From the NCBI GenBank assembly GCA_044376545.1, contig JBILKT010000001.1:1-31958 (forward strand): DNA of 31,958 bases, in the 5' to 3' direction. Source of the DNA: Alphaproteobacteria bacterium (GTDB lineage Bacteria; Pseudomonadota; Alphaproteobacteria; JAJTHO01; CANGXP01). Of the stretch, positions 1,844 through 25,829 are shown one piece after another. The notes under the pieces were generated by a model, which saw only the letters and a list, made by a program, of their open reading frames with translations, was not told the DNA's origin and made no database searches. Both the position numbers and the translations under genes were made by a program. Positions within the stretch are counted from its first letter, which is position 1. Each line of letters opens with the position of its first letter.

Positions 1844-1969
1844 TAGTCGTTTCAATTTATAATTACCCATAGCCGAAAACCACCGCAGCGGCGCGAAGTG
1901 TACCTCTTTGTACATGAAAGACGCTAAGGGAAGTTTGCAGGCAGGGGTGATTTTAAAGTGGAATGACTA
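1844..1969. mobile_element. TA-flanked MITE-like palindromic element A (126 bp) with GTAC core
   Basis: Terminal inverted repeats atagtcgtttcaatttataattaccc (from 1843) and gggtgattttaaagtggaatgactat (to 1970) match at 21/26. Both ends are TA. Hairpin tgtac-ctcttt-gtaca (1899-1914) is exactly at the centre. Confidence 0.75.
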
Positions 1970-2269
1970 TAACTGTGGCGATTGTAGCAGCGGTTTTACC
2001 TGAAGCTGCAACTTCTTCACAACACCGCTGGACTCTGCGCTGTCGAAGTCAAATTCGCGCTGCAAATTCCACCAAATAGCGGCCCCATCTCCGAAAAATG
2101 TACCTAATCGTACAGCCATTTCCACGGAAAGCCCCCGCTTTTGCTGCAATAACTCACTTACGGCAGAACGCGGGACACCAAGACCCCGTGCCAAATCTGC
2201 TTGTGATAAGCCGTATTCTTCCATAAAATCAGCCACAATCACTGCGGGATGCAAAGGTTTTTTTGACAT
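1967..2269 (-). CDS. higA: HigA-family antitoxin (XRE HTH)
   Basis: LHP...LSQADLARGLGVPRSAVSELL...S.EMA.RLG.FFG...WWNLQ pattern; directly downstream of a HigB toxin; SD AGGAG overlaps the toxin stop. Confidence 0.9.
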   Translation of the reverse strand: MSKKPLHPAVIVADFMEEYGLSQADLARGLGVPRSAVSELLQQKRGLSVEMAVRLGTFFGDGAAIWWNLQREFDFDSAESSGVVKKLQLQVKPLLQSPQL

Positions 2270-2278
2270 AGTGTTCTC

Positions 2279-2560
2279 CTAATGATAGTCTACAACGGAT
2301 ACATCAATCGCCTGTCCGTCTTGCCATATAAAACAGATACGCCATTGTTTATTAATGCGAATACTCCAATAGTCTTTCCTATCGCCTGATAGCTTTTCGA
2401 GATTATTACTCGGGGGGATACGCAAAGAACTTAGTGAATTTGCTGCATGTAAGCGGCGTAGTTTGATAAAAGCACGTTGCGCCACATCATCAGGAAAACG
2501 GCGATGTCGTCCCTGCTCAAACAACGCTTCTGTCATGCTATCCGCAAAACTCTTGATCAT
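2279..2560 (-). CDS. higB: HigB-family (RelE/ParE superfamily) toxin
   Basis: MIKSF start, PPSNNLEKLSGDR, SIRINKQWRICF, terminal VDYH; toxin-first gene order. Confidence 0.92.
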   Translation of the reverse strand: MIKSFADSMTEALFEQGRHRRFPDDVAQRAFIKLRRLHAANSLSSLRIPPSNNLEKLSGDRKDYWSIRINKQWRICFIWQDGQAIDVSVVDYH

Positions 2561-2565
2561 AATGT

Positions 2566-2594
2566 ATTGTACTGTAGAACATTACAGCAATCAA
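2566..2594 (-). promoter_or_regulatory. Sigma70-type promoter of higBA-1 with a palindromic operator candidate
   Basis: Minus strand TTGATT-N17-TACAAT, ending 5 nt before the higB ATG; the spacer holds the inverted repeat ctgta-N6-tacag. Confidence 0.7.
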
Positions 2595-3226
2595 TAAGAT
2601 TCTTGATCTTGTGATTTTTTAACCCGTATCAAGAACTGAATCGCGACGAAATCAGGAAAATATCGCCCTATCTTCCACCAATGCCTTTTCTTTGTGTGTA
2701 CACCATCCAACACTAATCCTGACGAAGTCATCAGCGCGATAGCCGATCTGCGTGTAAAAAATCGCAAATGTGTTTTGTCAAGAATCCCTACCTCTTCGTA
2801 TTCAAAACAGCCTTTTATCAGCCCTCGCACCACCGTGTAGTGCTGAATATTGGGGATACTGGCAATAATCACGCCCCCTTCCGCTAACAGCGGCGTTAGC
2901 TTTCGCAATGCCCCCCACGGGTCAACCAAATGCTCCAGCACATCCATGCAAAGAATCACATCAATACTCTGTGGCTCGAGCGGCAAGGCAAATGTTTCAA
3001 TGTTATCTTGCCAAACAACATCCACCGTCTGTTTTGCTATTTCAGCCGCTAGGGGGGAGATCTCAATACCTGCCGCCCAACTGCATAAATTTTGTTGCTT
3101 CAAATAGCTAATTGTTGCGCCCGTACCACAGCCAATCTCCAGCACACGCGAGGCTTTTTGCGGCATAAGTGGCGCAACTTCTTTACGGGTATGCGAGTAA
3201 TATGCTTGAGATACGTTTTTTTCCAT
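2591..3226 (-). CDS. Class I SAM-dependent methyltransferase (Methyltransf_23-like)
   Basis: Motif I VLEIGCGTG; DVILCMDVLEHLVDP; THLRFFT, as seen in glycan-cluster methyltransferases. Confidence 0.85.
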   Translation of the reverse strand: MEKNVSQAYYSHTRKEVAPLMPQKASRVLEIGCGTGATISYLKQQNLCSWAAGIEISPLAAEIAKQTVDVVWQDNIETFALPLEPQSIDVILCMDVLEHLVDPWGALRKLTPLLAEGGVIIASIPNIQHYTVVRGLIKGCFEYEEVGILDKTHLRFFTRRSAIALMTSSGLVLDGVHTKKRHWWKIGRYFPDFVAIQFLIRVKKSQDQESY

Positions 3227-3237
3227 AAAATTTCATT

Positions 3238-4203
3238 CTAGATTTTTTGTAAAAAAGGAGGAAAAGGTGTTGTAATACCTACTATGGCTGGTTGTGCACG
3301 CAGCGCAGCTAGTGCGCCTGCGAATCGTCCATGATACAATACGGCCTGTTTTTTATTGCCTAACAACCGATAAAGCCCTGCTTTTACACGGTAATAGTTG
3401 AGATAATACCATGGCAAGACGGTTGCAATCTGCTGGCTATATTTTTGCGCCATATAAAACCGTGCCCACTCAAAATACCAATGCTTGCGCCAATCTTGCT
3501 CAGGATTATACCCCGAACCACTTGAACCGCCGCCAATGTGCGTTACCTGTGCTGCAGGAACGAACAGCGGCGGCGAGCCTGCAATAACCGCCCGCAAACA
3601 AATATCAGTTTCCTCATAAAACAGGAAAATTTTCTCATCAAACCAGCCAATTTTCTCAATTGCTGCCATGTTAAAAAACATGGCGCAGCCACACACCCAG
3701 CCTACGGGAGTGGTGACTTCAGGCTGTTTATTTGGATATAACTTATGTTTACTCTTAAATAACAGAGGTTTAAACAACCTGTGACCACGCTCAAAGAGGG
3801 CTGGTTTTGCTGCCAGCATGGGTTGACCGTTGCTATCCACAGAAAGTGGTGCAAAAATAGGCGTTTGGGGGTTCCCTGCCGCTTCTGCAAGCAGTGTAGG
3901 GATGGTTTGCGCTTCCAAAAACACATCGGGATTCAATAAAAACGCATAGCGTGTTTTTGTGTGCCTAAAACCTTCGTTTGCAGCCCTGCCGTATCCAAGG
4001 TTTTCAGGGCTCGCGATGCACTGCACAGCGGGAAATTCTGCACGTATTAACGCAACAGTGGTGTCTTTACTCGCGTTGTCGATAACAACAATAGGGCATT
4101 CTTTTGGAATAGCACGGAGACATTGTGCAATAACGGCAGCGCTGTTATACGTTACAATGATACAAGTGACGTCTGCTAGTGTTGGCGGTATAAAATTTTC
4201 CAT
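3238..4203 (-). CDS. Family 2 glycosyltransferase (WbbL/rhamnosyltransferase-like)
   Basis: IIVTYNS, VIDNASKD, NLGYGRAANEG, LLNPD, GCAMFF, FDEKIFLFYEETDIC, THIGGGS motifs. Confidence 0.88.
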   Translation of the reverse strand: MENFIPPTLADVTCIIVTYNSAAVIAQCLRAIPKECPIVVIDNASKDTTVALIRAEFPAVQCIASPENLGYGRAANEGFRHTKTRYAFLLNPDVFLEAQTIPTLLAEAAGNPQTPIFAPLSVDSNGQPMLAAKPALFERGHRLFKPLLFKSKHKLYPNKQPEVTTPVGWVCGCAMFFNMAAIEKIGWFDEKIFLFYEETDICLRAVIAGSPPLFVPAAQVTHIGGGSSGSGYNPEQDWRKHWYFEWARFYMAQKYSQQIATVLPWYYLNYYRVKAGLYRLLGNKKQAVLYHGRFAGALAALRAQPAIVGITTPFPPFLQKI

Positions 4204-4229
4204 TGGAATAGCTTATAGTGAGATAAAGG

Positions 4230-5306
4230 ATGCAACAATCTTTTTTTATCATCGGTCTGATGAGCGGCACCTCCGCAGATGGTATTGATGCTGCCTTGCT
4301 GCGCACCGATGGCGTTGATTTTGTGGAACGTTTAGGGGGTGTTACAATCCCCTACCCTGCTGATTTTTCGGCAAAGCTCTTGCAAGCGGCACACACACAT
4401 ATCGCTGATGCGGTGTTAGTAAAAGAACTGACCAAACGCCATGCAGACGCGGTGACAAGCCTGCTAGAAAAAACAGGCTATACGGCGCAAGATATTGATT
4501 ATATTGGCTTTCATGGGCACACGATTGAGCACGCGCCTTTCGAACGCCGCACGGTGCAAATAGGCGATGCGGGGTTGTTAGCACGTCTCACAGGGATTGA
4601 TGTTGTCTATGATTTCCGCAGCAATGATGTGTTAGCGGGCGGGCAAGGCGCGCCACTTGTACCGCTGTATCATCAGGCACTCGCAAGAAACTGGCAGAAA
4701 CCCGTGGTTTTTGTGAATATTGGTGGCGTTGCGAATGTGACGTATAGCGATGATGATGTGTTGCTGGCATTTGACACAGGCACGGGCAATGCGTTGCTGA
4801 ATGATTGGATGCAGCAAAAAACAGGACAGGCTTTTGATAATAAAGGCGAAACGGCAAGACGTGGGCAGGTTAATACGGAAATCCCCCGCTCTCTACTACA
4901 GCATCCTTTTTTTATGAGCAAGCCCCCAAAATCGTTAGATAGAAACGCTTTTAGCCTTGAGGGTGTGAAAAATCTCTCTCTTGAAGATGGCGCGGCGACA
5001 CTCACGCACTTTACCGCGCAATCTATTGCCCTATCGAAACAATTTTTCCCCAAAGAACCTGTGCAATGGGTTGTTGTCGGCGGCGGCAGGCATAATGATT
5101 TTTTACTCGAAACGCTGCAACAGGCGGTTGCTGCCCCTGTGGTGACGGGCGAAAACGTGGGGTTACAGAGTGATTTTGTGGAAGCGGAAGCCTTTGCCTA
5201 CCTTGCCGCCCGCAGTGTACAGGGCTTGCCGTTAAGTCTGCCCAGCACAACGGGCGTTCCTACTCCCTTAACGGGTGGAAGCCTTGTGCGTATCAATAAT
5301 CTGTAA
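4230..5306 (+). CDS. anmK: Anhydro-N-acetylmuramic acid kinase
   Basis: IGLMSGTSADGIDAAL, GFHGHT, DFRSND...GGQGAPLVP, NIGGVAN, FDTGTGN, EAFAYLA, LPSTTG. Confidence 0.95.
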   Translation: MQQSFFIIGLMSGTSADGIDAALLRTDGVDFVERLGGVTIPYPADFSAKLLQAAHTHIADAVLVKELTKRHADAVTSLLEKTGYTAQDIDYIGFHGHTIEHAPFERRTVQIGDAGLLARLTGIDVVYDFRSNDVLAGGQGAPLVPLYHQALARNWQKPVVFVNIGGVANVTYSDDDVLLAFDTGTGNALLNDWMQQKTGQAFDNKGETARRGQVNTEIPRSLLQHPFFMSKPPKSLDRNAFSLEGVKNLSLEDGAATLTHFTAQSIALSKQFFPKEPVQWVVVGGGRHNDFLLETLQQAVAAPVVTGENVGLQSDFVEAEAFAYLAARSVQGLPLSLPSTTGVPTPLTGGSLVRINNL

Positions 5307-6365
5307 AAGCGTATCGCCAAATCGTTTTGATTCCGTAATATTTCCGAGTGTGTCAGGCATTTCTGTTAAACCTAAGTCTGCAATGCTTGATTTTCCCTCG
5401 TTTCCAAGGATTTTTGGTGCGGTGAACCAATACCACCTGTCGATTAAATTATCTTGATGAAGGCTGCTGATAACCGCCGCACCCCCTTCGACTAATAGCC
5501 TTGTAATACCTAATTTCGCTAGCTCTTCGAGCATAGCACGCAACGGTAATTGATTTTTTTCAGTAAGGTGTAAGGCAATCGGCAAAACGTTTTTTTTCAG
5601 GAATGATTCAGGCGGATGGGTGTTCGCCTTTACCACACAATAGGTGGGCTGCGTGCCATCAAAAACATTGTAGGTTTCGGGAATTTTCAACGTTTTATCC
5701 AGCACCACCCGTATGGGCGAGAATTTTTCTAAGCCTTGCAATCGACAATTTAGGCGCGGATTATCCGCCAAAACTGTATTTGTGCCTACCAAAATCGCGT
5801 CATACTCAGCACGGAGTTTATGCCCAAAAGCGCGTGCCTCAGGGCTGGTTATCCACTGACTCGCGCCATTCTTAAGCGCAATTTTGCCATCAAGGGAACT
5901 TGCGACTTTTACCGCCACTAACGGCATCCCTGTTTTTATTTTCTTGAAAAATCCTACATTTAGCGCAAGAGCCTCTTTTTCTAACACCCCTTCTGTAACC
6001 ACAATCCCTGCTTGTTTGAGCATCGCAATGCCGCGCCCCGCAACGCGGGCATCTACATCGTGCACTGCCACCACCACCCGTGCAACGCCCGCTTTTATCA
6101 AGGCTTCTGCACAGGGCGGTGTTTTTCCATAATGGGCGCACGGCTCTAACGTCACATAGGCGGTTGCACCAGAAGCCTTATCTCCCGCCTGTTTCAGGGC
6201 TTCTGTTTCGGCGTGCGGTCGCCCTGATGGCTGCGTCCATCCGCGCCCTATAATTTTACCCTCTTTAACAATAACGCAGCCAACAGCAGGATTGGGAAAG
6301 GTGTTGCCAAGCCCCCGTTTTGCAAGGTTCAGCGCATGCTGCATAAACGCGGTATCCTCAATCAT
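5268..6365 (-). CDS. ribD: Bifunctional riboflavin deaminase/reductase RibD
   Basis: NPAVGCVIV, HAE and TLEPCAHYGKTPPC zinc motifs; reductase half with SLDGK, ILVGTNTVLADNP, LLVEGG. Confidence 0.96.
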   Translation of the reverse strand: MIEDTAFMQHALNLAKRGLGNTFPNPAVGCVIVKEGKIIGRGWTQPSGRPHAETEALKQAGDKASGATAYVTLEPCAHYGKTPPCAEALIKAGVARVVVAVHDVDARVAGRGIAMLKQAGIVVTEGVLEKEALALNVGFFKKIKTGMPLVAVKVASSLDGKIALKNGASQWITSPEARAFGHKLRAEYDAILVGTNTVLADNPRLNCRLQGLEKFSPIRVVLDKTLKIPETYNVFDGTQPTYCVVKANTHPPESFLKKNVLPIALHLTEKNQLPLRAMLEELAKLGITRLLVEGGAAVISSLHQDNLIDRWYWFTAPKILGNEGKSSIADLGLTEMPDTLGNITESKRFGDTLLQIIDTHKASTR

Positions 6366-6375
6366 TTTTTGGCAC

Positions 6376-6828
6376 TCATTTTTGATCTAATGTTCCCAAG
6401 AAATTCTCAAAGTCCTGCGCTTCGCGGAAATTACGATAGACTGACGCAAAGCGCACAAATCCAACCTTATCAAGGGGGGCGAGCGTTTCCATAATAATCT
6501 CGCCGATTTTTTGCGATTGTATGTCGCTATCGCCTAAGCTTTCCAACTGGCGTACGATACCATTGGTGATTTTTTCAATGCGTTCGCTGTCAAACGGCCG
6601 CTTTCTCAGCGCAATTGCCAAGGAGCGCTTGATTTTCTCACGATTAAATGGCTCCCGCTTGCCATTAGTTTTTAGCACAAATAATTCGCGCAACTCGATG
6701 CGCTCAAACGTTGTAAACCGCCCCCCACATTCCGAGCAAAACCGCCTGCGCCGAATGCTCGTCCCATCATCCGACGGGCGCGAGTCTTTCACTTGTGTTT
6801 CGAGGAACGCGCAAAAAGGGCATTTCAT
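6376..6828 (-). CDS. nrdR: Transcriptional repressor NrdR
   Basis: MKCPFC...VKDSR...[17 protein letters not shown] zinc ribbon plus ATP-cone; ends FASVYRNF. Confidence 0.97.
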
Positions 6829-6918
6829 TGGTAATTCGCACCATGAATTTTATTTTAAGTTATATTTTTATAAAAATAATACAGCCTTACAACAACGTCA
6901 AGCGTAAACGTGAGGGGT

Positions 6919-8020
6919 TCAACTGCCCACTTTTGCCGCTAATGACGCTTCTAAGAACATATTAATGTCACCGTCGAGCACGGCTTGGGTGTTACTGGTT
7001 TCGACTGCTGTCCGTAAGTCTTTTATCATTTGATAGGGATGCAGAACGTAAGATCGAATTTGATGTCCCCAACCGATATCAGTTTTCTTATCTTGTAACA
7101 TTTGTAGTTTTGCTTCACGCTGTTGCAATTCCATTTCATAGAGCCGTGCTTTTAGCATTCTATAGGCTTCTGCACGGTTGCGGTGTTGTGATCTGTCACT
7201 TTGGCATTGCACCACCGTATTTGTTGGGATGTGGGTAATGCGAATGGCGCTATCGGTTTTGTTGACATGCTGTCCGCCTGCCCCTGACGCCCGATAGGTA
7301 TCTACCCGCAAATCTTTTTCTTCGATGGTAATATCGATATTATCATCCACAACAGGATAAACCCACACAGAGCAAAAACTGGTATGACGTTTTGCGTTGC
7401 TATCAAAGGGAGAAATGCGCACCAAGCGATGCACACCGCTTTCTGCTTTAAGCCAGCCGTAAGCATTCAGTCCATTAATTTTCAGTGTTGCCGATTTAAT
7501 GCCCGCGCCATCACCATCGCTTTGCTCAAGAAATTCCAAGCCATAGCCTGTGCGCTCCGCCCAGCGCATATACATGCGGAGTACCATTTCTGCCCAATCT
7601 TGGGACTCTGTGCCCCCTGCTCCCGCATTCACCGCCAAATAGCAATCATTTTTATCGGCTTCGCCTGAGAGCAAGGCTTCAAGCTCGCGTCGTGCCAATG
7701 TTTTTTGCAAAGCAAATAGTGCTGCTTCTGCCTCCGCAATCATCGCAGTGTCTTGTTCTGCTTCGGCCATTTCTAAGAGGTCAATCGCCTCTTGCCGTGT
7801 GGTTTCTGCTTCTTTGTGGGCGTTGATGGCTTTTTCAAGTGCCGTGCGTTCTTGCAGTATTTTGTGTGCAACGGCAGGATCATCCCACAAGCTGGGGTTT
7901 TCGGCTTGTTCATTCAGCGCTGTCAAACGGAGGAGAGATTTCTCCCAGTCAAAGACTCCTCCGCAATAAGCTCAGAGAATAATTTATTTTTTCAACAGTT
8001 TGTAAAATTTCTGCACGCAT
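6919..8020 (-). CDS. prfB: Peptide chain release factor 2, joined by a programmed +1 frameshift (about 366 aa)
   Basis: ATG at 8020 with upstream AGGAG gives [23 protein letters not shown] then TGA. The +1 frame ([15 protein letters not shown]...) continues into the ORF-track 6919..7926 frame with [11 protein letters not shown] and GGQ motifs. Confidence 0.96.
7948..7962 (-). promoter_or_regulatory. RF2 programmed frameshift cassette
   Basis: Minus strand GGAGGAG-T-CTT-TGA-C: internal SD-like sequence followed by the canonical CUU-UGA-C shift site at codon 23. Confidence 0.95.
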
Positions 8021-8032
8021 TAATTCTTACTC

Positions 8033-10537
8033 CTAATATATACCGTTTAGCACCCCTGCATCCTTCGGCGCAACGGATTCATCACTACCCATGGGGATGC
8101 TATCGTTTGCAGGCGATTCTTTATCAAAATTTTCTTCCGCAACAGGTTGATCGCCCGTTATTTCTTTTTGTGGTTCTTGGAGTTTTTGTTTTTTGAAGGC
8201 TTCAAAAATCACATCTTTGTCGCCATAACCAGCAGGACGACCTGTTTTATGACTGACCCGCATGAGGCGAATATCGGGCGGCACACGGAAGGGCGATGGT
8301 GGATTATCTTTCAGCGCAAGTTCCATGAAATCACGGAATACGGGTGCGGCATTGCTCCCCCCCGTTACTTTTTTGCCCAAACTACGGGGATTATCAAAGC
8401 CCATATACAGCCCGACGACTAAATCTGGCGAAAAGCCCACAAACCAGACGTCTTTGTTGTCATTTGTTGTCCCTGTTTTGCCTGCCAAAGGCGCATCGGG
8501 CAAAGATTTGCCAATGACAGATCCTGTGCCTGCCCGTACCACGCCTTGCAGCATGGAAATCATCTGATACGCGCTGCCTGCATCAGTAATTTGCGGTCTA
8601 TTGTCAGGAATCTCCGGAATTTTCTGGTTGTCCCACCCAAGCGAATTACATTGGGGGCACTCTCTTGTATCGTGTTTGTAAATGTTTTTGCCTGTTCTGT
8701 CCTGAATGCGATCAATCAGCGTGGGAGTTACTTTTTTACCGCCGTTTACAAACACCGCATACGCGCTTGTCATTTGCAATAAATTAACTTCCAGCGCCCC
8801 CAGCACAGCGGAATAGCGCGCAGGCATGTTTTCCATAATGCCAAAGCGGCGTACCACATCTTGGATGGGTTTCATGCCAATGGCTTGGGCAATGCGCACG
8901 GTCATGGAATTACGCGATTTTTCTAATCCCACGCGCATTGTGGTGGGACCATAAAATTCATCTTTATAGTTTGAAGGACGCCAGATGCCTAACCCCGGCC
9001 CTAGGTAAATGCTGATGGGGGCGTCTAAAATAATGGTGTTTGGTTGATAGCCATTCTCTAGACCTGCAAGATAAATAAACGGCTTGAAGGTAGACCCTGG
9101 TTGGCGTTTTGCTTGTGTTGCGCGATTAAATTCACTGCCTTCGTAGTTAAAGCCCCCTACCATGGCGAGAACGCGCCCTGTATGGGGATCAAGCGCAATA
9201 AGCCCCCCGCTGATGAGTGGCATTTGTTGTAGATCATACAACGGTTTTGTCACGTCTTTATCTTGGCGCAGGGTAACAAATATCACATCCCCGCGCTTTA
9301 AAAAGCCTGAAAGGGTTTTGTTTTTTGTCCATGTCACGCTTTTGGCATCAAAAAAGCCTTCTTGCCCCTCTTGTGTGAGCAAGGTCGCACTGTTCGCCTC
9401 TGCTTTCATGATAACAGCAAGATTCCAGCCCAAATTTTTGTTAGGATTGGGGGTGGCGGCCAGTGCGGCAAGAGCATGAGGATCACTCGGATCAATCGTG
9501 TTTAATGCCCCGCGCCAGCCCCGTTTTTGGTCATATTCCAATAACCCCTTCCGAAATACTGTTTCGCCAATTTTCTGTAAAAAAGGAACAAGTGTCGTGC
9601 GCACAGAATAGCCGCCGCTATACAACTCTTTTTCACCATATTTTTGTCCTAACCAACGGCGTACTTCTTCAGCAAAATACTCTGCGGTGACATATTCGGT
9701 TGCATCGCGTTGTACAGTCCTTAGGGGTGTTGTTTGCGCCTGCTGCATCTGCTCGAACGTGATGAATTTTTGCCCATACATCTCACGCAACACCCAATTA
9801 CGGCGTTCCATCGCCTCTTTATAGGCACGTTTAGGATTATAATTGTTAGGGGCTTTCGGCAACGCTGCTAAATAGGCCGCTTCTGCGGGAAGCAACTCAT
9901 CAAGCGATTTATTGAAATAGTTGAGGGCTGCCGCTGCAACGCCATAAGATCCTTCACCTAAATAAATTTCATTAAGGTATAGCTCTAAAATTTGCTGTTT
10001 TGTAAAAACGCTTTCAATGCGGAACGCCAAAATGGCTTCTTTAATTTTTCGCTCAAGAGATACTTCGTTGGTCAACAAAAAGTTTTTTGCAACCTGTTGT
10101 GTGATGGTTGAGGCGCCTTGCGGCCGGCGATTACCGCCTTCTAATTTCTTAATCAGATTGCCAAATCCTGCACGGGCAATACTGAGAAAGTTCACACCGC
10201 CATGCTTATAAAATTGTTGGTCTTCGGCTGCTAAAAATGCGTGAATAACAAGCGGGGGGATGGCGTCAATCGGTACAAAAACACGTTTTTCTTGGGCGTA
10301 TTCTGCTAAAATCCGGCCATCTCCTGCGTGAAGGCGGGTAACAACAGGCGGCGTATAATTACGCAACTGTTTGTGATCTGGCAAATCACGTCCATATTTA
10401 TAAAAACCAAACAAGATAACAATAAGAACACAACAAACACCTACAAGTCCTGAATAGGCAAAAAAACGGAACAGCTTGCCCAAAAAGCTTTTGGACTGTT
10501 TTCCTACCTGCTCTGAAGAGGTGAGTATTTTTGCCAT
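8033..10537 (-). CDS. mrcA: Penicillin-binding protein 1A (transglycosylase/transpeptidase)
   Basis: N-terminal TM helix; GT51 motifs EDQQFYKHGG and GASTITQQVAKN; transpeptidase STFK, SRN, KTGT. Confidence 0.95.
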   Translation of the reverse strand: MAKILTSSEQVGKQSKSFLGKLFRFFAYSGLVGVCCVLIVILFGFYKYGRDLPDHKQLRNYTPPVVTRLHAGDGRILAEYAQEKRVFVPIDAIPPLVIHAFLAAEDQQFYKHGGVNFLSIARAGFGNLIKKLEGGNRRPQGASTITQQVAKNFLLTNEVSLERKIKEAILAFRIESVFTKQQILELYLNEIYLGEGSYGVAAAALNYFNKSLDELLPAEAAYLAALPKAPNNYNPKRAYKEAMERRNWVLREMYGQKFITFEQMQQAQTTPLRTVQRDATEYVTAEYFAEEVRRWLGQKYGEKELYSGGYSVRTTLVPFLQKIGETVFRKGLLEYDQKRGWRGALNTIDPSDPHALAALAATPNPNKNLGWNLAVIMKAEANSATLLTQEGQEGFFDAKSVTWTKNKTLSGFLKRGDVIFVTLRQDKDVTKPLYDLQQMPLISGGLIALDPHTGRVLAMVGGFNYEGSEFNRATQAKRQPGSTFKPFIYLAGLENGYQPNTIILDAPISIYLGPGLGIWRPSNYKDEFYGPTTMRVGLEKSRNSMTVRIAQAIGMKPIQDVVRRFGIMENMPARYSAVLGALEVNLLQMTSAYAVFVNGGKKVTPTLIDRIQDRTGKNIYKHDTRECPQCNSLGWDNQKIPEIPDNRPQITDAGSAYQMISMLQGVVRAGTGSVIGKSLPDAPLAGKTGTTNDNKDVWFVGFSPDLVVGLYMGFDNPRSLGKKVTGGSNAAPVFRDFMELALKDNPPSPFRVPPDIRLMRVSHKTGRPAGYGDKDVIFEAFKKQKLQEPQKEITGDQPVAEENFDKESPANDSIPMGSDESVAPKDAGVLNGIY

Positions 10538-11755
10538 TTATCGAAGCGCGTTAGTGTTGAAAAAGCTGTTAGTGGCAGCAACAATCCCTGCAACAATGCG
10601 TGCACGATATTGTGATTGCCGTAGTTGATACTCCTCACGCGGGTTAGAAATATAGCCCATTTCTAACAACACAGCGGGCGTATCGGGTGCTTTTAACACC
10701 ATAAACCCTGCAAAGCGATGGGTTTTTTCACGCACTACCACACGCTGCGAGAGTTCGCGCACCAATGCCGTTGCAAAACGAGCAGACATGTTCATGGTTT
10801 CACGTTGCACCAAATCAATAAGTATACTGCTCACTTCTTTATTTTCGCCGTAAAGATTCACACCACTTATTAAGTCAGCTTTGTTTTCTTTGGCCGCCAA
10901 AAGCCCTGCTTCTTTATCAGACGCCTTTTCTGATAGCGTATAGACAGACAAACCATCCGCCATTTGACTGGGCGCAGAATCAGCATGCAAGGAAATGAAC
11001 AGGGCCGCATTTTTTTGATGGGCAAAATGGGTGCGTTCCCGCAAGGGAATAAACACATCTGTTGCACGCGTCATGTAGACTTCATAGCGCCCTGTACGGA
11101 GCAGTGCCTCGCGGAGTTCTAGCCCCACGCGCAACGTGATATCTTTTTCAAACGTGCCTGATTTTCCAATGGCACCCGGATCTTTTCCACCATGACCAGG
11201 GTCAATGACCACCACCATTTTTTTTGACTTTGTACGGGATAATGGTGCGACCTTATCAGCGCTACTAAGCAATTTTTTTTGTGATTTTGGAATTACATCA
11301 ATAACATATCGCGCCTTTTGCGTGTCATTTTTGGGTAAATAAAACTGTTTGCTTATGAGCGGGTCTTCTTTGGTTTGTAAAACGACCCTATATCCCGATC
11401 CCGATCCCGATCCTGCATCATTATCGCGTTGTTGGACGCTGCGAACAATTCCTGATTTTCTCGGTAAATCAATGGATTGCCCGCGCCAAGTGCCATTATC
11501 AACATCAATAATAAGGCGGAATGGGTTTTGTGCTGTGGAAATTCTACATGAGGGTGTGCCGGATAGCTCGACAACAATGCGGGTTTTATCAGGATGCTCG
11601 CCCACACGCACAGCATAAATATCAACGGGTTGGACAGGCGGTTGGGCAGCAGCGATGAGGCTTATGCTGCATAAAAAAATACTAAAAAATACTATAAGGA
11701 AACGCATTATAAAGTTATCACAATTTTTTTCAGGAAATCTTAAAGGTTTCTTCAT
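10538..11755 (-). CDS. amiC: N-acetylmuramoyl-L-alanine amidase (AMIN + Amidase_3); start may instead be ATG 11707
   Basis: Signal peptide MRFLIVFF..., AMIN-like HPDKTRIVVEL, catalytic IDPGHGGKDPG, FISLHAD, LLEMGY; stop abuts the PBP1A ATG. Confidence 0.9.
   Translation of the reverse strand: MKKPLRFPEKNCDNFIMRFLIVFFSIFLCSISLIAAAQPPVQPVDIYAVRVGEHPDKTRIVVELSGTPSCRISTAQNPFRLIIDVDNGTWRGQSIDLPRKSGIVRSVQQRDNDAGSGSGSGYRVVLQTKEDPLISKQFYLPKNDTQKARYVIDVIPKSQKKLLSSADKVAPLSRTKSKKMVVVIDPGHGGKDPGAIGKSGTFEKDITLRVGLELREALLRTGRYEVYMTRATDVFIPLRERTHFAHQKNAALFISLHADSAPSQMADGLSVYTLSEKASDKEAGLLAAKENKADLISGVNLYGENKEVSSILIDLVQRETMNMSARFATALVRELSQRVVVREKTHRFAGFMVLKAPDTPAVLLEMGYISNPREEYQLRQSQYRARIVAGIVAATNSFFNTNALR
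11392..11413. repeat. In-frame hexanucleotide microsatellite (atcccg)x3.7 in amiC
   Basis: atcccgatcccgatcccgatcc encodes GSGSGSG on the minus strand. Confidence 0.85.
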
Positions 11756-12063
11756 TTTTTTACAGCATTAGCTTGTTTGATGCGGCAAGAATAATTTTGT
11801 TGTTGTGAGTGCGCAACGAATTCGCTACCATAACTTCATGATTACCACAAGTAATCAACAATAAAGAAGCAACACAATTGTAATGACCTATACTTTGTCC
11901 CTTTTCCCTGTCAGAAAATCCAGCGTAACGATGGCATGTCCCACGTTTTTCGCGCTGGAACTGCGGCGCATTGGTGCTTTGTTTTCTATCTTTTCTAAAA
12001 ACATATCGCGCACCGCAGGGTTGATTACCCGCCTGTGTCGTGACCTAACGGAGTCCTCCCCCC

Positions 12064-14475
12064 ATGACCACAACAATGTTGATCGATGCAACCCATGCTG
12101 AAGAAACCCGCGTAGCTATTATCGAAGGCAATACGCTCACTGAACTTGACTATGAAATAGCCGCCAAGCAAAATATTAAAGGGAACGTTTACCTTGCGAA
12201 AGTAACGCGTGTAGAGCCGTCACTGCAGGCTGCCTTTGTAGAGTATGGCAATAACAAGCAAGGTTTTCTGCCGTTCTCAGAAATCCATCCTGATTATTTT
12301 CGGATTCCTATCGCAGATAGAGAAGCGCTTATTGCGCAAGAAGCTGATTTTCAAGCCGAATCACAGGATGATGAAAATACTGAGTCACGGGAGGCTGTTG
12401 ATAATCAACCTGAAGAACCTCTGTTGGATGTGGAGGGAAATCCTGTTATCCCTGAAGGAATAGCGGAAGAAAAATCAGCGCCTGTTTCCATTAATGAAGA
12501 AGAAGGGGATTTTCGACCCCGTCGCTTTAACCCGAAGCGTCATTATAAAATTCAAGAAGTTATCAAAAAACACCAAATTATGTTGGTGCAGGTGACAAAA
12601 GAAGAGCGGGGCAATAAGGGCGCTGCGCTTACAACATATCTCTCTCTTGCAGGCCGCTATTGTGTGCTGATGCCAAATTCTTTGCGTGCGGGGGGTATTT
12701 CTCGCAAAATCAGCGATGGCAAAGACAGAAAGCGCATTAAAGAAATTCTGGAAGATTTAGAAATTCCTCAAGGTATTTCTATTATTGTTCGCACTGCAGG
12801 GTCGGAGCGTAATAAAACAGAAATTAAGCGAGATTATGAATACCTCTCGCGCTTGTGGGATCAAATTCGCCAAGATACGCTAGAAGCGAATGCCCCTGCG
12901 TTGATTTATGAAGAGGGCAACCTTATTAAACGGGCTTTGCGTGACATGTACCAAAGCGAAACAGGGGATATTTGGGTTGAAGGGGAAACAGGCTACAAAA
13001 CCGCCAAAAATTTCATGAAAATGTTGATGCCAACCCATGTAAAACGGGTACAGCAGTATAAAGATCCTATCGTGCCGTTGTTCCAACGCCATCATGTAGA
13101 AGAGCAAATTGACAGTATTTTGAAGCCCGTTGCCATATTACCCTCGGGGGGATATTTGGTTATTAACCAAACAGAAGCGTTGGTTTCTATTGATGTGAAC
13201 TCAGGGCGTGCAATTCGCGAGCGTAACATTGAAGAAACAGCGTTGCGTACCAACTTAGAGGCGGCCGATGAACTTGCGCGACAACTGCGCCTGCGTGACC
13301 TTGCAGGATTGGTGGTAGTTGACTTTATCGATATGGAAGACAGGCGCAACAATCATGTTGTGGAAAAGGCGTTGCGCGATGCGTTAAGACACGACAGAGC
13401 GCGTCTGCAAGTGGGACGGATTAGTAACTTTGGTTTGCTGGAAATGTCTCGGCAACGGTTGCGTCCTTCTGTAACAGAATTAAATAGTGAAACGTGTTCT
13501 CATTGCGCAGGTGCGGGGCGTGTGCGCTCGTCGGCAGGTCAAGCATTGCAAATTATTCGTGCAATTGAAGTGGAAGGCATGCAAAATCGTACGGCGGTGC
13601 TGAAAGTGCATACCCACACAGGTATTGCGTTTTACATGTTAAATACAATGCGCGAAGCCCTACAAGATATTGAACAACGTTATCATTTTCATGTTGTCTT
13701 TGCTGAAGATCATAGTCTTGGGGCGCAAGAATATCGTCTAGAGACAGTGGAAACGCTGACAGAAGAGCAACGCGCTGAATATAATACCCCCAGCCACGAA
13801 GCCTATTGGGCAGAACGTGCCAAGATATTGGCAGAAAAAGAAGAGCAAGCCAAACGGCAGAACAAAGCAGGCGGACGCAATGAGCGTCGGCGTGGGCGCG
13901 ATCGCTTTAATCGCGACCGAGATAGGACGCAACCACAAGCAGATACAGAACAAGGCGAAAATAGAGAACATCTTGATATTGCTGCGGACGGGTCTGGAGA
14001 AAATGTGCGTGAACGAAGTGAACGGGGTGGTCGTGGTCGTCGTGGCAGACGGGGTGGTCGTCGTCGCGAAGGAGAGTATGGCGAGAACCGCTTTACTGAC
14101 AACACAACAACAGAGGAATTTTCAACAGAAGACGCAGGCGCGTATCCCCTCACAGTAGAACAACCCCATCTTGATTTGCCTATCACTGTAGAAAGCAACG
14201 TGCCAGTGGCAGAAGTGGAAGCAGAGAAACCCCGTCGTGGACGTGGCAGAGCAAAAGCAAAGTCTGTGACACAACCTGAGGCAACATCTGAAATTGCCGC
14301 CGTATCGTCTGTCCGCCAAGAAAAACCTGTAGTCTCCCCCCCTATTGAGATTATCGCTGCGCCAAAGCAACGTTCTGCAGAAGAAAAATCGGACAAGAAG
14401 CCAGAAAATGTTGCGTTGATTACGGATTCGCCAGAAAAACCTAAAAAAGGCTGGTGGTCAAAGTTTGTGATTTAA
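12064..14475 (+). CDS. rne: Ribonuclease E
   Basis: LIDATHAEETRVA, S1 domain VEPSLQAAFVEYG, IDVNSGR, Zn-link CSHC; disordered Arg-rich/acidic C-terminal region ending in KKGWWSKF. Confidence 0.97.
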   Translation: MTTTMLIDATHAEETRVAIIEGNTLTELDYEIAAKQNIKGNVYLAKVTRVEPSLQAAFVEYGNNKQGFLPFSEIHPDYFRIPIADREALIAQEADFQAESQDDENTESREAVDNQPEEPLLDVEGNPVIPEGIAEEKSAPVSINEEEGDFRPRRFNPKRHYKIQEVIKKHQIMLVQVTKEERGNKGAALTTYLSLAGRYCVLMPNSLRAGGISRKISDGKDRKRIKEILEDLEIPQGISIIVRTAGSERNKTEIKRDYEYLSRLWDQIRQDTLEANAPALIYEEGNLIKRALRDMYQSETGDIWVEGETGYKTAKNFMKMLMPTHVKRVQQYKDPIVPLFQRHHVEEQIDSILKPVAILPSGGYLVINQTEALVSIDVNSGRAIRERNIEETALRTNLEAADELARQLRLRDLAGLVVVDFIDMEDRRNNHVVEKALRDALRHDRARLQVGRISNFGLLEMSRQRLRPSVTELNSETCSHCAGAGRVRSSAGQALQIIRAIEVEGMQNRTAVLKVHTHTGIAFYMLNTMREALQDIEQRYHFHVVFAEDHSLGAQEYRLETVETLTEEQRAEYNTPSHEAYWAERAKILAEKEEQAKRQNKAGGRNERRRGRDRFNRDRDRTQPQADTEQGENREHLDIAADGSGENVRERSERGGRGRRGRRGGRRREGEYGENRFTDNTTTEEFSTEDAGAYPLTVEQPHLDLPITVESNVPVAEVEAEKPRRGRGRAKAKSVTQPEATSEIAAVSSVRQEKPVVSPPIEIIAAPKQRSAEEKSDKKPENVALITDSPEKPKKGWWSKFVI

Positions 14476-14504
14476 CAAAGGAAGTGTGAATATTTGAACA
14501 ACGC

Positions 14505-15368
14505 CTACACAGACAACACAGGTTTCCTCGCCACTACACAGCGTGGATTCCCTGCGAGATCGTGTTTACACACGATCACCTGTAAACCCGCTTCGGCCAC
14601 GAATGCCTCAACAGCGGCTTGTTGTGTATAGCCAATCTCTAAAAACACAGAGCCTTGTGGCTGCAAAACAGTTGCCAGTAACGGGATAAGCTGTCGATAG
14701 GCGTCCAATCCATCTGCGCCCCCATCTAGGGCTACTACAGGATCAAATTCTCTCACCTCTGGTGCGAGTGTGGCGATTTCTGCTGTGGCAATATAGGGCG
14801 GATTGCTCAAAATCACATCAAACACCCCATCAACAGGCGCAGTCCAACTGCCTTGTAAAAACGTTGTCCGTGCTGTCATGCCCAACGCCTCAGCGTTATG
14901 GTGCGCTATTTTTAGTGCCTCAGATGAAATATCCACCCCCACACCTGTGCTCTCTGGATATTCCTGTAACGCTGCCAGTAACAAACAGCCACTACCCGTG
15001 CCGATATCTAAAAACCGTAACGGCACATCATGATTGGGGTAATATTCCAGCACCGCATCGATCACGGTTTCACTATCAGGGCGCGGATCCAGCGTTGCTG
15101 TCGACACCCGAAACGGCAAGCTCCAAAACTCTTTTTCGCCGACAATTTTTGACAATGGCTCACGTTTGCAACGCCGCTCGACATAATGCTCAATATCGAT
15201 GCCTTGGCGAAAAGAAAGATGGTCGGGGGCGTCTACATATAAGGTTACAGGCGGCAACCCTAGCGCGTAGGCAACCAGCACCCGGGCTTCATAGTCTTCA
15301 TTTTCGATACCCACCTGCCACAGGCGTTTCGCTACGCGACTGACAATGTCTTGTACGTTATGCATCAT
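14505..15368 (-). CDS. prmC: Release factor glutamine methyltransferase
   Basis: RRCKREPLSKIVGEKEFWSL, TLDPRPDSET, LDIGTGSGC, SNPPY, DGGADGL. Confidence 0.96.
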   Translation of the reverse strand: MMHNVQDIVSRVAKRLWQVGIENEDYEARVLVAYALGLPPVTLYVDAPDHLSFRQGIDIEHYVERRCKREPLSKIVGEKEFWSLPFRVSTATLDPRPDSETVIDAVLEYYPNHDVPLRFLDIGTGSGCLLLAALQEYPESTGVGVDISSEALKIAHHNAEALGMTARTTFLQGSWTAPVDGVFDVILSNPPYIATAEIATLAPEVREFDPVVALDGGADGLDAYRQLIPLLATVLQPQGSVFLEIGYTQQAAVEAFVAEAGLQVIVCKHDLAGNPRCVVARKPVLSV

Positions 15369-15376
15369 CCACCATA

Positions 15377-15445
15377 GGTTTTCGGTTTTGGGTTTTCGGT
15401 TTTAAGAATGCCCTTTTCAAAACCGAAAAGCGAAAACCTGAAACC
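15377..15445. repeat. Hairpin made of inverted heptamer tandem repeats between prfA and prmC
   Basis: ggttttc-ggttttg-ggttttc-ggtttta (15377-15404), a 13-nt loop, then caaaacc-gaaaagc-gaaaacc-tgaaacc (15418-15445). Confidence 0.8.
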
Positions 15446-15458
15446 AAAAATGGCAAGA

Positions 15459-16538
15459 CTACTCATCGACATTAGACAACTTAGCCGCCTGATCCTCGGC
15501 AATCAGTGCCTCAATTAATTCGTCTACTTCTCCTTCTAACACCCGATCTAGTTTATAGAGTGTAAGATTAATACGGTGGTCCGTGACGCGTCCTTGCGGA
15601 TAGTTATAGGTGCGGATGCGTTCCGAGCGATCGCCCGTGCCCACTTGCCCACGTCTGTCTGCGGAGCGTGCGGCATCAATCGCCGCCAATTTTTGATCAT
15701 ATAAACGTGCGCGTAATACCCGTAACGCTTTAGCTTTGTTCTTATGTTGCGATTTTTCATCTTGTTGTTGTACCACAAGCCCTGTGGGAATGTGGGTAAT
15801 CCGCACCGCACTATCGGTGGTGTTGACTGATTGCCCGCCGGGGCCTCCTGAGCGAAACACATCAATGCGTAAATCTTTTTCCAAGATTTCAATATCCACT
15901 TCTTCTGCCTCTGGCAACACGGCAACTGTTGCTGTGGAGGTATGAATACGCCCGTTTGCTTCTGTATCAGGCACGCGCTGCACACGGTGTACGCCTGATT
16001 CAAATTTAAGTTTGGCAAATACACTTTTGCCGTTAATTTGTGCGCTCGCGTCTTTTAGCCCGCCGATGCCTGTATCGCCATAGTTCAGAATTTCAAACTT
16101 CCAGCCCTGCCGTTCGGCGTAGCGTTGATACATGCGGAATAAATTTGCGGCGAATAACGCGGCTTCATCACCGCCTGCCCCTGCGCGAAATTCGATAATC
16201 GCGTTTCTATCGTCTGCTTCATCTTTGGGGAGGAGCATCACCCGAATGGCATGATCTTGCAGCGGAATTTGTTCTTTTAGCGCGTAAATTTCTTCCTCCG
16301 CCATGGCATGCATCTCTGCATCCAGCGCGGGATCCGCCAGCATGGCTTCCGCCTCCGCCAAAGCCTGCACCGCTTTTTGGTTTTCTTCAATTTTTTCAGC
16401 GATTTCTGTTAAATCGGCATATTCTTTGGAGAGTTTGACAAACTCGGGCGACGCCGCAGAAATCTCCCCGTCTGATAACAGGCGTTTGAGTTCTTCATAA
16501 CGTTCCAGCACTTTTTCTAATTTTCGTTGCCACGACAT
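15459..16538 (-). CDS. prfA: Peptide chain release factor 1
   Basis: [25 protein letters not shown] (PxT), [24 protein letters not shown]; SD GAGGGG upstream. Confidence 0.97.
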
Positions 16539-16596
16539 GGCGTTTGTCCCCTCATACTTAAAGAGGAGTTATAGCGCAGATGTGTTAAATAGCAAC

Positions 16597-16911
16597 CTAT
16601 TCGAACAAGATGTCCCGTCCCGTTCCCCTCTTCAAAACAGGCGGAATCATCTGTGTGAGATCATCATTTGCGGGATTAGCTGTTTTCTCCAAGCCTTTTG
16701 GGGAGACTGTTTGAGGCTGTTTCTGCAAATACATAATCGCATTGTCTAGCATATCTTGATGGAGCGTATCCATGTTATCCAGCGCTTCAAGGTTCACTTG
16801 AACAACATCATTTTCGTGTTGCATAAATTTCCGATAGCCTCTGTTGGGCTGTCCAGAAAGACGGGCAATCTGGTAAGCATGGTGATTAATATGGTGAAGA
16901 GCTTGGTGCAT
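16597..16911 (-). CDS. Hypothetical protein (104 aa)
   Basis: ATG-initiated ORF filling the hisS-prfA gap on the same strand; no recognised family and no clear SD. Confidence 0.5.
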   Translation of the reverse strand: MHQALHHINHHAYQIARLSGQPNRGYRKFMQHENDVVQVNLEALDNMDTLHQDMLDNAIMYLQKQPQTVSPKGLEKTANPANDDLTQMIPPVLKRGTGRDILFE

Positions 16912-16935
16912 AGCGGGGGGGCAGACCTATTTTTT

Positions 16936-17084
16936 TAGGTTCTGTTGAGATTTTAAGTATTTTGAGGTGAAAATGACGAAATTTCGAGAACCGCAACGCA
17001 AGTGTACTTCTTCGTACATGCGGAGCGGAAGCGCAGAAATACGTCATTTGCAAACCAAAAGACGACAAATATCAACAGAATCTA
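16936..17084. mobile_element. TA-flanked MITE-like palindromic element B (149 bp) with GTAC core
   Basis: TIRs taggttctgttgagattt and aaatatcaacagaatcta (16/18). Arms pair imperfectly along the whole length (e.g. aaatgacg/cgtcattt). Centred hairpin tgtac-ttcttc-gtaca at 17003-17018. Confidence 0.8.
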
Positions 17085-17111
17085 GTCTGCCGCAAATGTA
17101 TTAACAAACGC

Positions 17112-18801: not shown

Positions 18802-18925
18802 CAGGGCGATTGCATTAGAAAAAATAACTCATTGAAAAATAATGGTTTTTCAGAATTTCAACATTAAAGCCTATCGCGTAACTTATTGTTTTTAAAGGAA
18901 TAAAATTCCTAATGCGATTGCCCTG
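18802..18925. mobile_element. 124-bp MITE with CAGGG ends (ISAs1-like), copy 1
   Basis: TIR cagggcgattgcattag / ctaatgcgattgccctg (15/17); perfect 10-bp flanking direct repeat ccttcccccc (18792-18801, 18926-18935); 121/124 identical to copy 2. Confidence 0.92.
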
Positions 18926-25705: not shown

Positions 25706-25829
25706 CAGGGCGATTGCATTAGAAAAAATAACTCATTGAAAAATAATGGTTTTTCAGAATTTTAACATTAAAGCCTATCGCGTAACATATTGTTTTTAAA
25801 AGAATAAAATTCCTAATGCGATTGCCCTG
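25706..25829. mobile_element. 124-bp MITE with CAGGG ends (ISAs1-like), copy 2
   Basis: Same TIRs as copy 1; a different perfect 10-bp flanking direct repeat taattaaggg (25696-25705, 25830-25839). Confidence 0.93.

Follow-up and report, generated by a model that had tools for sequence, protein, structure and literature searches.

Palindromic repeats with a common core in an alphaproteobacterial genome belong to one TA-flanked superfamily with a centre conserved as a fold

Introduction

The question raised by this locus is why two repeats with dissimilar ends should have almost the same centre. Both lie in a 31,958-nt stretch of alphaproteobacterial DNA (contig JBILKT010000001.1, here called the window), which is contig C126 of a metagenome-assembled genome (MAG) of 1.70 Mb in 228 contigs (G000). 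Element A (1844–1969, + strand) is a 126-bp palindromic repeat that extends from TA to TA, with ends that we call A-type and a shortened, degenerate centre. Element B (16936–17084, + strand; inverted repeat I1) is a 149-bp canonical member, in which a 145-bp body is enclosed by TA at 16936–16937 and at 17083–17084. An earlier note on this DNA had described a 21-nt core common to both, and had interpreted A and B as different families of MITEs (miniature transposable elements with inverted repeats) with unrelated ends that share a recognition signal or act as rod-shaped transcripts.

The core itself is as described. Its halves (8 nt on the left, 7 nt on the right) are the same in A (1896–1916) and B (17000–17020), and the 6-nt loop alone differs. 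It is also centred in both elements in spite of their lengths of 126 and 149 bp, the middle of the loop (1906.5 in A and 17010.5 in B) falling on the midpoint of the element as measured from TA to TA. The core forms an apical hairpin, at 1898–1915 (+) in A with a 6-bp stem (GTGTAC/GTACAT, closed by a G-T pair) and a 6-nt loop at 1904–1909, and at 17002–17019 (+) in B with the same stem and a loop at 17008–17013.

One explanation would be that two unrelated palindromes share a 15-nt motif by chance or convergence. We reject this and consider its probability negligible. The pattern TGTAC-N6-GTACA has three matches in the window (at 1899, 2099 and 17003) where 0.01 are expected, and none of 100 shuffles gave three. 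In the whole MAG, eight of the ten matches lie in repeats with similar flanks that are members of the family described below, and a covariance model links A directly to B. The third match in the window (2099–2114) is within an open reading frame (ORF; 1967–2269, – strand), has dissimilar flanks and is not seen by the model; it fits a chance occurrence at the genome-wide level.

Elements A and B are subfamilies of one superfamily

The dissimilar ends are reconciled with the common centre by the finding that A and B are subfamilies of a single old superfamily of full-length palindromic, TA-flanked repeats of about 120–150 bp. A covariance model (R1) was built from 103 elements with the A-type excluded. 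In the MAG, it detects 15 canonical copies at 88–119 bits (element B scores 117.9 bits), together with diverged or remote copies. Among the latter it finds element A at 1847–1965 (+) with 43.3 bits (E ~5e-7), and at 53 bits the second copy of A in the MAG, which is on contig C36 and 95% identical. Further copies of B are found on contigs C81, C144 and C225 (85–91% identity). The view of A and B as different MITE families that share a signal is not borne out, as a model without A-type rows is able to connect them.

BLAST and nhmmer searches with the middle of B showed that copies are conserved over the central 85–100 nt, while the outer 20–30 nt are specific for each subfamily. In B, this central module (16961–17060, +), delimited by nhmmer, alignment A1 and covariation, consists of short helices and conserved asymmetric internal loops, and it is common to all subfamilies regardless of the type of ends. 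The apical stem varies as well, with GTGTAT/ATACAT, GTTGAC/GTCAAT and GCGTAC/GTACGT among the copies recovered. A-type ends occur joined to a complete canonical centre in a genome from another family (G034) and at several loci from named MAGs, which, together with the R1 match, identifies A as a member with a shortened centre. Conversely, B-type ends enclose a different centre in a sister species (L140:2040–2260 and L141:420–640), so that ends and centres must have been assorted. The apical domain of these two copies is exchanged for a module of about 75–100 nt, joined in both at the same conserved internal-loop blocks.

That the ends vary had been correctly noted, but calling them unrelated was an overstatement. 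Those of A and B both begin with TAG, there are additional common blocks outside the 21-nt core, and one covariance model covers both. Nearly all ends of the family open with TAG and continue, through a block that is rich in purines or contains C, to TGT. The 21-nt core is common to A and B through common ancestry. The earlier note had opposed to its own reading a single family with a core that is simply inherited and lacks covariation; the former is what we find, yet covariation is present.

Elements are 119–150 bp long and dispersed in many copies, in the manner of small, non-coding MITEs. The loop has either 5 or 6 nt, a variation that breaks any reading frame; we therefore consider the elements non-coding and reject a peptide encoded by the core. 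The pyrimidine loop, which had been taken as part of the shared core, did not hold up as a family character. It is all-pyrimidine in only 9 of the 103 aligned elements, eight of them from this genome, and is thus a peculiarity of this genus.

A constraint on the centre to fold as a single strand

RNAalifold applied to alignment A1 yields a single rod, with compensatory changes in 24 of 28 pairs. In a structure of 50 pairs drawn up from the alignment, 42 show double changes, 81.7% of the cells are paired (66.2% when shuffled, 32–42% when the partners are slid) and the covariation score is 0.405 vs 0.150; as the rows are related to each other and 91 of them were chosen by pattern, these shuffle controls overstate the significance and are not probabilities. 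For one inner pair, each of the four Watson-Crick types is represented (by 57, 20, 12 and 11 sequences), and there are only three exceptions. The outer helix (columns 5–28 with 124–145) has 72–87% of its cells paired, the elements thus having terminal inverted repeats. Between the helices are conserved unpaired blocks that differ in length on the two sides, and the arms are therefore not mere copies of each other.

Since the apical stem is largely fixed by the pattern used to choose the 91 outside rows, this stem was re-counted on 71 distinct hits found by R1 in seven genomes. In this set the stem is 98.8% paired and shows compensatory changes at four of its six positions (U-A to C-G, G-C to U-A, U-A to G-C and C-G to U-A), and in 13 rows A-U or G-C takes the place of the closing G-U. 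Covariation is thus strong over the whole rod, apical stem included. The suggestion that the apical motif is under constraint is supported in this form: pairing is kept through compensatory changes, while the core is 80–90% identical across genomes of different families and orders. These data show that the constraint on the centre concerns its folding as a single strand.

The same core has the layout of palindromic half-sites, and could be imagined as a double-stranded site for a dimeric protein (a CRP/NtcA-like regulator acting on TGTA-N8-TACA, CcrM, or a nucleoid protein) that was recruited by unrelated repeats. The sequence GANTC, found in 38 of 103 copies and in 25 of these, from Rhizobiales subfamilies, at one column of the left arm, would agree with this. 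We consider such a site very improbable. The half-sites change together within one genome (the three stem variants given above), as fits a stem; their spacing is 5 or 6 nt; GANTC is confined to the minority just mentioned; and homology extends along the entire element, which argues against independent recruitment of a motif.

Orientation probably follows replication, not transcription

The two strands of an element are not equivalent. The strand that we call top (+ in A as well as in B) is the more stable one in 93 of the 103 elements when RNA parameters are used (by about 7.6 kcal/mol), and in 102 of them with DNA parameters. On this strand there are 431 G-T pairs vs 162 A-C pairs, an excess that stems from perhaps ten independent events.

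The orientation in the chromosome is biased as well. Read on the top strand, the flanks have a negative GC skew at 69 of 90 loci found by pattern (p=4e-7). For the copies of the MAG the count is 14 of 21, and for those found by R1 in three other genomes it is 14 of 20. Overall, about 74% of 131 copies have the better-folding strand on the side that is C-rich (lagging), and the preference persists when the loci found by pattern are split by coding bias (39 of 50 and 30 of 40). The strand that folds better therefore tends to be the lagging one, which is also the template for the leading strand, provided that leading strands are G-rich throughout this set of genomes. In the complete chromosome of Brucella pseudogrignonensis, each of the ten copies located beyond 1.4 Mb has the + orientation, which fits a replichore effect if the record begins near the origin.

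With respect to genes, there is no such preference. In co-directional settings, 16 elements are sense and 18 antisense to the neighbouring genes, the flanks are about balanced as to which strand carries more coding sequence (50 vs 40), and both A and B are antisense to their upstream gene. This bears on an explanation at the level of RNA, where the mobile repeat would carry a cis-acting mRNA element (a stabiliser, a target of RNase III or RNase E, or a terminator-like structure) or a small RNA. Roles of this kind at the mRNA level are established for the Correia and ERIC repeats of other bacteria. The strong compensatory covariation with conserved internal loops would speak for such an RNA, as would the excess of G-U over A-C on one strand, the near-universal closing G-U and the better folding of the top strand with RNA parameters. 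Elements are also more frequent between convergent genes (29) than between divergent ones (12). Against this, the only orientation bias detected tracks the replication strand, and a U tract of the terminator type is not conserved. Rfam has no match that overlaps an element, whether at gathering threshold, with the limit relaxed to an E of 10 for the surroundings of B, or with E values up to 1 for eight loci from other genomes; weak hits to the Rfam family BASRCI27 in Brucella loci lie outside the elements. We regard a structured RNA as unlikely, and the rod-shaped transcript of the earlier note gains no support from orientation. As the orientation follows the replication strand and not gene direction, we favour a constraint acting on single-stranded DNA over a role in mRNA. 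An outward promoter or a sigma-54 site had been considered for a conserved block in the right arm from its sequence only, and both were dropped, as right ends mostly face the 3' ends of genes.

Distribution in the Alphaproteobacteria

In an exact-pattern scan of 185,579 species genomes, at least 117 loci matched. Of the 117 listed, 95 are true elements as judged by their flanks, nearly all from Alphaproteobacteria. Hosts among the matches listed are Brucella/Ochrobactrum, Pseudochrobactrum, Mesorhizobium, Phyllobacterium, Aliihoeflea, Pelagibacterium, Allorhizobium, Sphingobium, Hyphococcus, Micavibrio, MAGs labelled Azospirillum, and many MAGs that are labelled "Rickettsiales" or are unclassified Alphaproteobacteria; a small number come from MAGs that bear the label Gammaproteobacteria or Bdellovibrionales. 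When one genome was sampled per family, R1 was positive (E of 1e-6 or better) in 11 of 151 genomes. One of the 11 (G095) is an unpublished genome, and this tally alone depends on it.

Copy numbers may be high, with dozens of copies in G001, G042 and G043. The sister species already mentioned (G001, a freshwater MAG labelled "Alphaproteobacteria bacterium") has 22 matches of the B type and at least 25 A-type copies. There are at least 44 matches in Brucella anthropi (G043), at least 40 in a Mesorhizobium, and 15 in G046, which resembles B. melitensis. Only 8 of the 95 copies lie within a long ORF call, with ORF calls taken as they stand.

In the plasmid database PLSDB, the element was found on 27 replicons (from Sphingobium, Shinella, Phyllobacterium, Agrobacterium vitis/Allorhizobium, Novosphingobium and Rhizobium) and is unannotated in all of them. 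Near-full-length copies on replicons of Sphingobium, Shinella and Phyllobacterium are 76–88% identical. This degree of identity between Hyphomicrobiales and Sphingomonadales, together with the patchy distribution, points to horizontal spread of the family within the Alphaproteobacteria.

Mobility and insertion sites

The elements are mobile and usually flanked by TA. Mobility follows from their presence or absence at orthologous sites, a polymorphism that is clear at six sites. In one case, the stretch 16936–17086 with element B is missing from the orthologous site downstream of hisS in the sister species, where the flanks of the empty site pair into a hairpin that resembles a terminator, and the target TA lies in the loop region. 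For forty elements of the sister species, the corresponding position in the MAG was inspected for an empty site; three comparisons were clean and several near-clean. Duplication of a TA target, with a single TA in the empty site and a TA on each side of the element, fits the cases of element B, L184 and L208, and loosely that of L199.

The reciprocal situation is also represented in the window. At 8032–8035, just upstream of the start of an ORF (8033–10537, – strand), there is an unoccupied TA target. The orthologous site of the sister species (L184) carries a 171-bp family member with TA on both sides.

Several copies are themselves interrupted. In G046 (L130, C1:1837063–1837256), a repeat of 104–106 bp, similar to the known repeat Bru-RS, is nested exactly in the apical loop of a family copy, and in two members from B. 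anthropi (L132 and L133) the apical loop contains hairpins of about 60 nt. From these nested repeats we conclude that the apical cap is a hot spot of insertion. In the MAG, a family copy split between two contigs (C140:3223–3355 and C83:1–65) is interrupted by an unassembled multi-copy insertion, with an ORF that begins at the contig end; no match to this insertion was detected in three relatives.

Two further repeats of the window are unrelated to the family. A second palindromic repeat, centred at about 1778, is located immediately upstream of element A (1705–1838), with four copies in the MAG and at least five in the sister species. Another repeat (D1), of 124 bp, has two copies in the window (18802–18925 and 25706–25829) that are 98% identical.

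Which enzyme could mobilise the elements?

TA flanks and YTAR-like contexts make a TA-targeting DDE transposase that acts in trans the default assumption. The earlier note had suggested a check for co-occurrence with a particular transposase or nuclease family; a comparison of host genomes did not reveal a consistent partner. Transposases of the IS630 type (DDE_3) are present in the MAG (broken), in the sister species (multi-copy, at contig ends), and in G004, G034, G117 and G203, but an IS630-like copy in the sister species is degraded and its ends do not match the family. Given its inconsistent presence among host genomes, IS630 is unsupported as a universal partner. The same applies to the IS5/IS427 type (PF13586), which was not found in G033 and G043. 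A long, gene-carrying form of the family was not detected in the MAG, the left-arm orphan on C140 being the interrupted copy described above.

The strand asymmetry would also be compatible with a REPIN- or PATE-like repeat that an HUH tyrosine transposase (RAYT or the TnpA of IS200/IS605) recognises by its hairpin and mobilises in single-stranded form; what looks like TA duplication would then be a motif of the cleavage site, found in the target and at one end of the element. Structure rather than sequence is constrained, one strand folds better, the orientation is linked to replication, and two empty sites (L167 and L178, see below) are without a TA on the left, as expected if no target is duplicated. 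Nevertheless, we think that this is improbable. The transposase domain Y1_Tnp (PF01797) had no match in five host genomes (G000, G001, G033, G034 and G043), whereas control genomes were matched, and we reject a RAYT or IS200/IS605 partner on this basis. The better-folding strand lies on the leading-strand template, which is opposite to the hairpin strand orientation of IS608-type elements. In addition, the ends start with TAG and variable bases, without a terminal GTAG or CGTC tag, and repeats with the CGTC tag have been reported to be missing in Brucellaceae (PMC3733652), where the present family occurs.

Proposed explanation

We think it probable that A and B represent subfamilies of ancient, non-autonomous mobile repeats which have spread horizontally and have a centre that is constrained by its fold. 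Each copy is a full-length imperfect palindrome with variable terminal inverted repeats that start with TAG. Internally, it is a rod of short helices, variable yet complementary, that is broken by conserved asymmetric internal loops. The rod is capped by a stem of 5–6 bp, most often GTGTAC/GTACAT, with a loop of 5–6 nt, and the core that A and B have in common would be this inherited cap. Mobilisation might be provided in trans by a TA-targeting DDE transposase (IS630/Tc1-like, or IS5/IS427-like at YTAR) that recognises the variable ends. A possible reason for the retention of the centre is that transposition, or passage of the replication fork, requires the element to fold back on itself, either in single-stranded DNA or in a cruciform. 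The bias in orientation might then arise from insertion coupled to the fork, or from the loss of copies with a stable hairpin on the lagging-strand template. Within this account, we consider an action of the fold as single-stranded DNA at the fork to be possible rather than probable.

A number of observations weigh against this explanation. A conserved centre with variable ends is the reverse of what is usual for a MITE bound by a transposase. Two of the six empty-site comparisons, one of A-type (L167) and L178, are without a TA on the left side and do not fit a simple TA duplication. No autonomous partner with matching ends was found, and DDE_3 does not co-occur significantly with the elements in the sampled genomes (5 of 11 positive vs 39 of 140 negative ones); it was not detected in G033, G043 (with its at least 44 element copies), G046 and G191. 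The small number of independent events behind the G-T excess, the relatedness of the alignment rows and the skew-based assignment of strands, on which a reading of the bias at the DNA level would depend, have to be counted here as well.

Another reading would be that the element is no ordinary MITE bound by a transposase but is specified by its structure as single-stranded DNA, with the asymmetric rod recognised by some enzyme or by the replication-fork machinery, with entry or survival depending on fork polarity in such a way that the better-folding strand comes to lie in the lagging strand, and with only the pairing of the ends, not their sequence, being of importance. We regard this as unlikely, and prefer mobilisation through the ends, with the fold of the centre under constraint.

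Implications

If this explanation is correct, a single family accounts for many unannotated palindromes of 130 bp in Brucella/Ochrobactrum, Mesorhizobium, Phyllobacterium and Sphingobium, as well as in small-genome freshwater MAGs and in MAGs labelled "Rickettsiales". It would provide a test case for the long-term foldability of palindromic MITEs, with covariation as in RNA and an orientation that follows replication, for the horizontal transfer of repeats across orders, and for whether hairpin strength on the lagging-strand template decides which insertions survive. On the practical side, the covariance model could be used to mask these repeats in screens for small RNAs and riboswitches, where their covariation would give false positives, and to mark insertion polymorphisms between close strains.

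Comparison with known repeats

Literature searches by name and by sequence strings yielded no account of this family, which may nevertheless have been described before. The "undescribed system" of the earlier note is too strong a term for what appears to be a new family of a known kind, the palindromic MITE-like repeats.

Two types of repeat can be excluded. The CGTC-tagged repetitive extragenic palindromes of Alphaproteobacteria are units of 20–40 nt and are reported to be absent from Brucellaceae (PMC3733652); unit size and distribution both differ from those of our family. The 103–106-bp repeat Bru-RS (Bru-RS1 and Bru-RS2), which forms two hairpins, has more than 35 copies and, by HMM, about 222 hits in B. 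melitensis (PMC2267715). It resembles the family, as do CIR and RIME, in being a dispersed intergenic palindromic repeat, of ~100–110 bp, in the same bacteria. In G046 (chromosome 1, 2,117,144 bp), the family has 15 matches of about 135 bp, while a high-copy repeat of 104–106 bp with two hairpins is a separate sequence with 257 candidates, in line with the Bru-RS count.

Three other repeats were compared by their published descriptions and their distribution. CIR, known from Caulobacter and Brucella and possibly identical with our family, is described as TA-ended with GANTC in one arm, and Rhizobiales copies of our family have GANTC in the left arm only. CIR is described as two arms with a linker, whereas the present elements form a single rod, and no Caulobacter record is among the 117 loci listed. 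The MAG itself contains, outside the window, a different repeat with two hairpins, of ~105 bp with the ends TATACC...GGTATA and more than 130 BLAST matches (examples are C124:1900–2009, C151:2744–2856 and C118:3866–3969), the shape of which recalls the published description of CIR. Identity with the Rhizobium repeat RIME is unlikely, as in PLSDB no Sinorhizobium replicon and only one from Rhizobium carries the element. The Rickettsia palindromic elements (RPE) are 95–150 bp long and some are TA-ended (PMC2229807). They are likewise palindromic repeats of Alphaproteobacteria, and several matches to our family come from MAGs labelled Rickettsiales. However, RPE are described as in-frame within genes with conserved peptides, whereas our elements have a variable loop and are essentially intergenic.

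A parallel of a different kind is offered by integron attC sites and the ends of IS200/IS605 elements, hairpins of single-stranded DNA that are recognised through their structure. There, too, helices co-vary, conserved unpaired bases set the identity of the strand, only one strand is functional and orientation relative to replication matters. Our family is without integrase, cassette array or TnpA, and consists of dispersed, TA-flanked repeats with terminal inverted repeats. We do not claim membership; the parallel illustrates how such an element may work.

The closest counterparts by their properties are the Correia (NEMIS) elements of Neisseria and the ERIC sequences of Enterobacteria, which are full-length palindromic MITEs of 100–155 bp with a TA target duplication (PMC2229807). 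They agree with our family in size, TA ends, terminal inverted repeats, a hairpin over the whole length, a mostly intergenic location, diverged subfamilies and the lack of a known dedicated transposase. Their hosts belong to other classes, and the likeness considered here is one of properties. We know of no orientation bias relative to the replication strand in either of them. In Correia elements, the ends are conserved and the centre, with its IHF site, is optional, whereas in the present family the centre is conserved and the ends vary. Correia and ERIC are the best functional analogues of the family to which A and B belong, with the pattern of conservation inverted.

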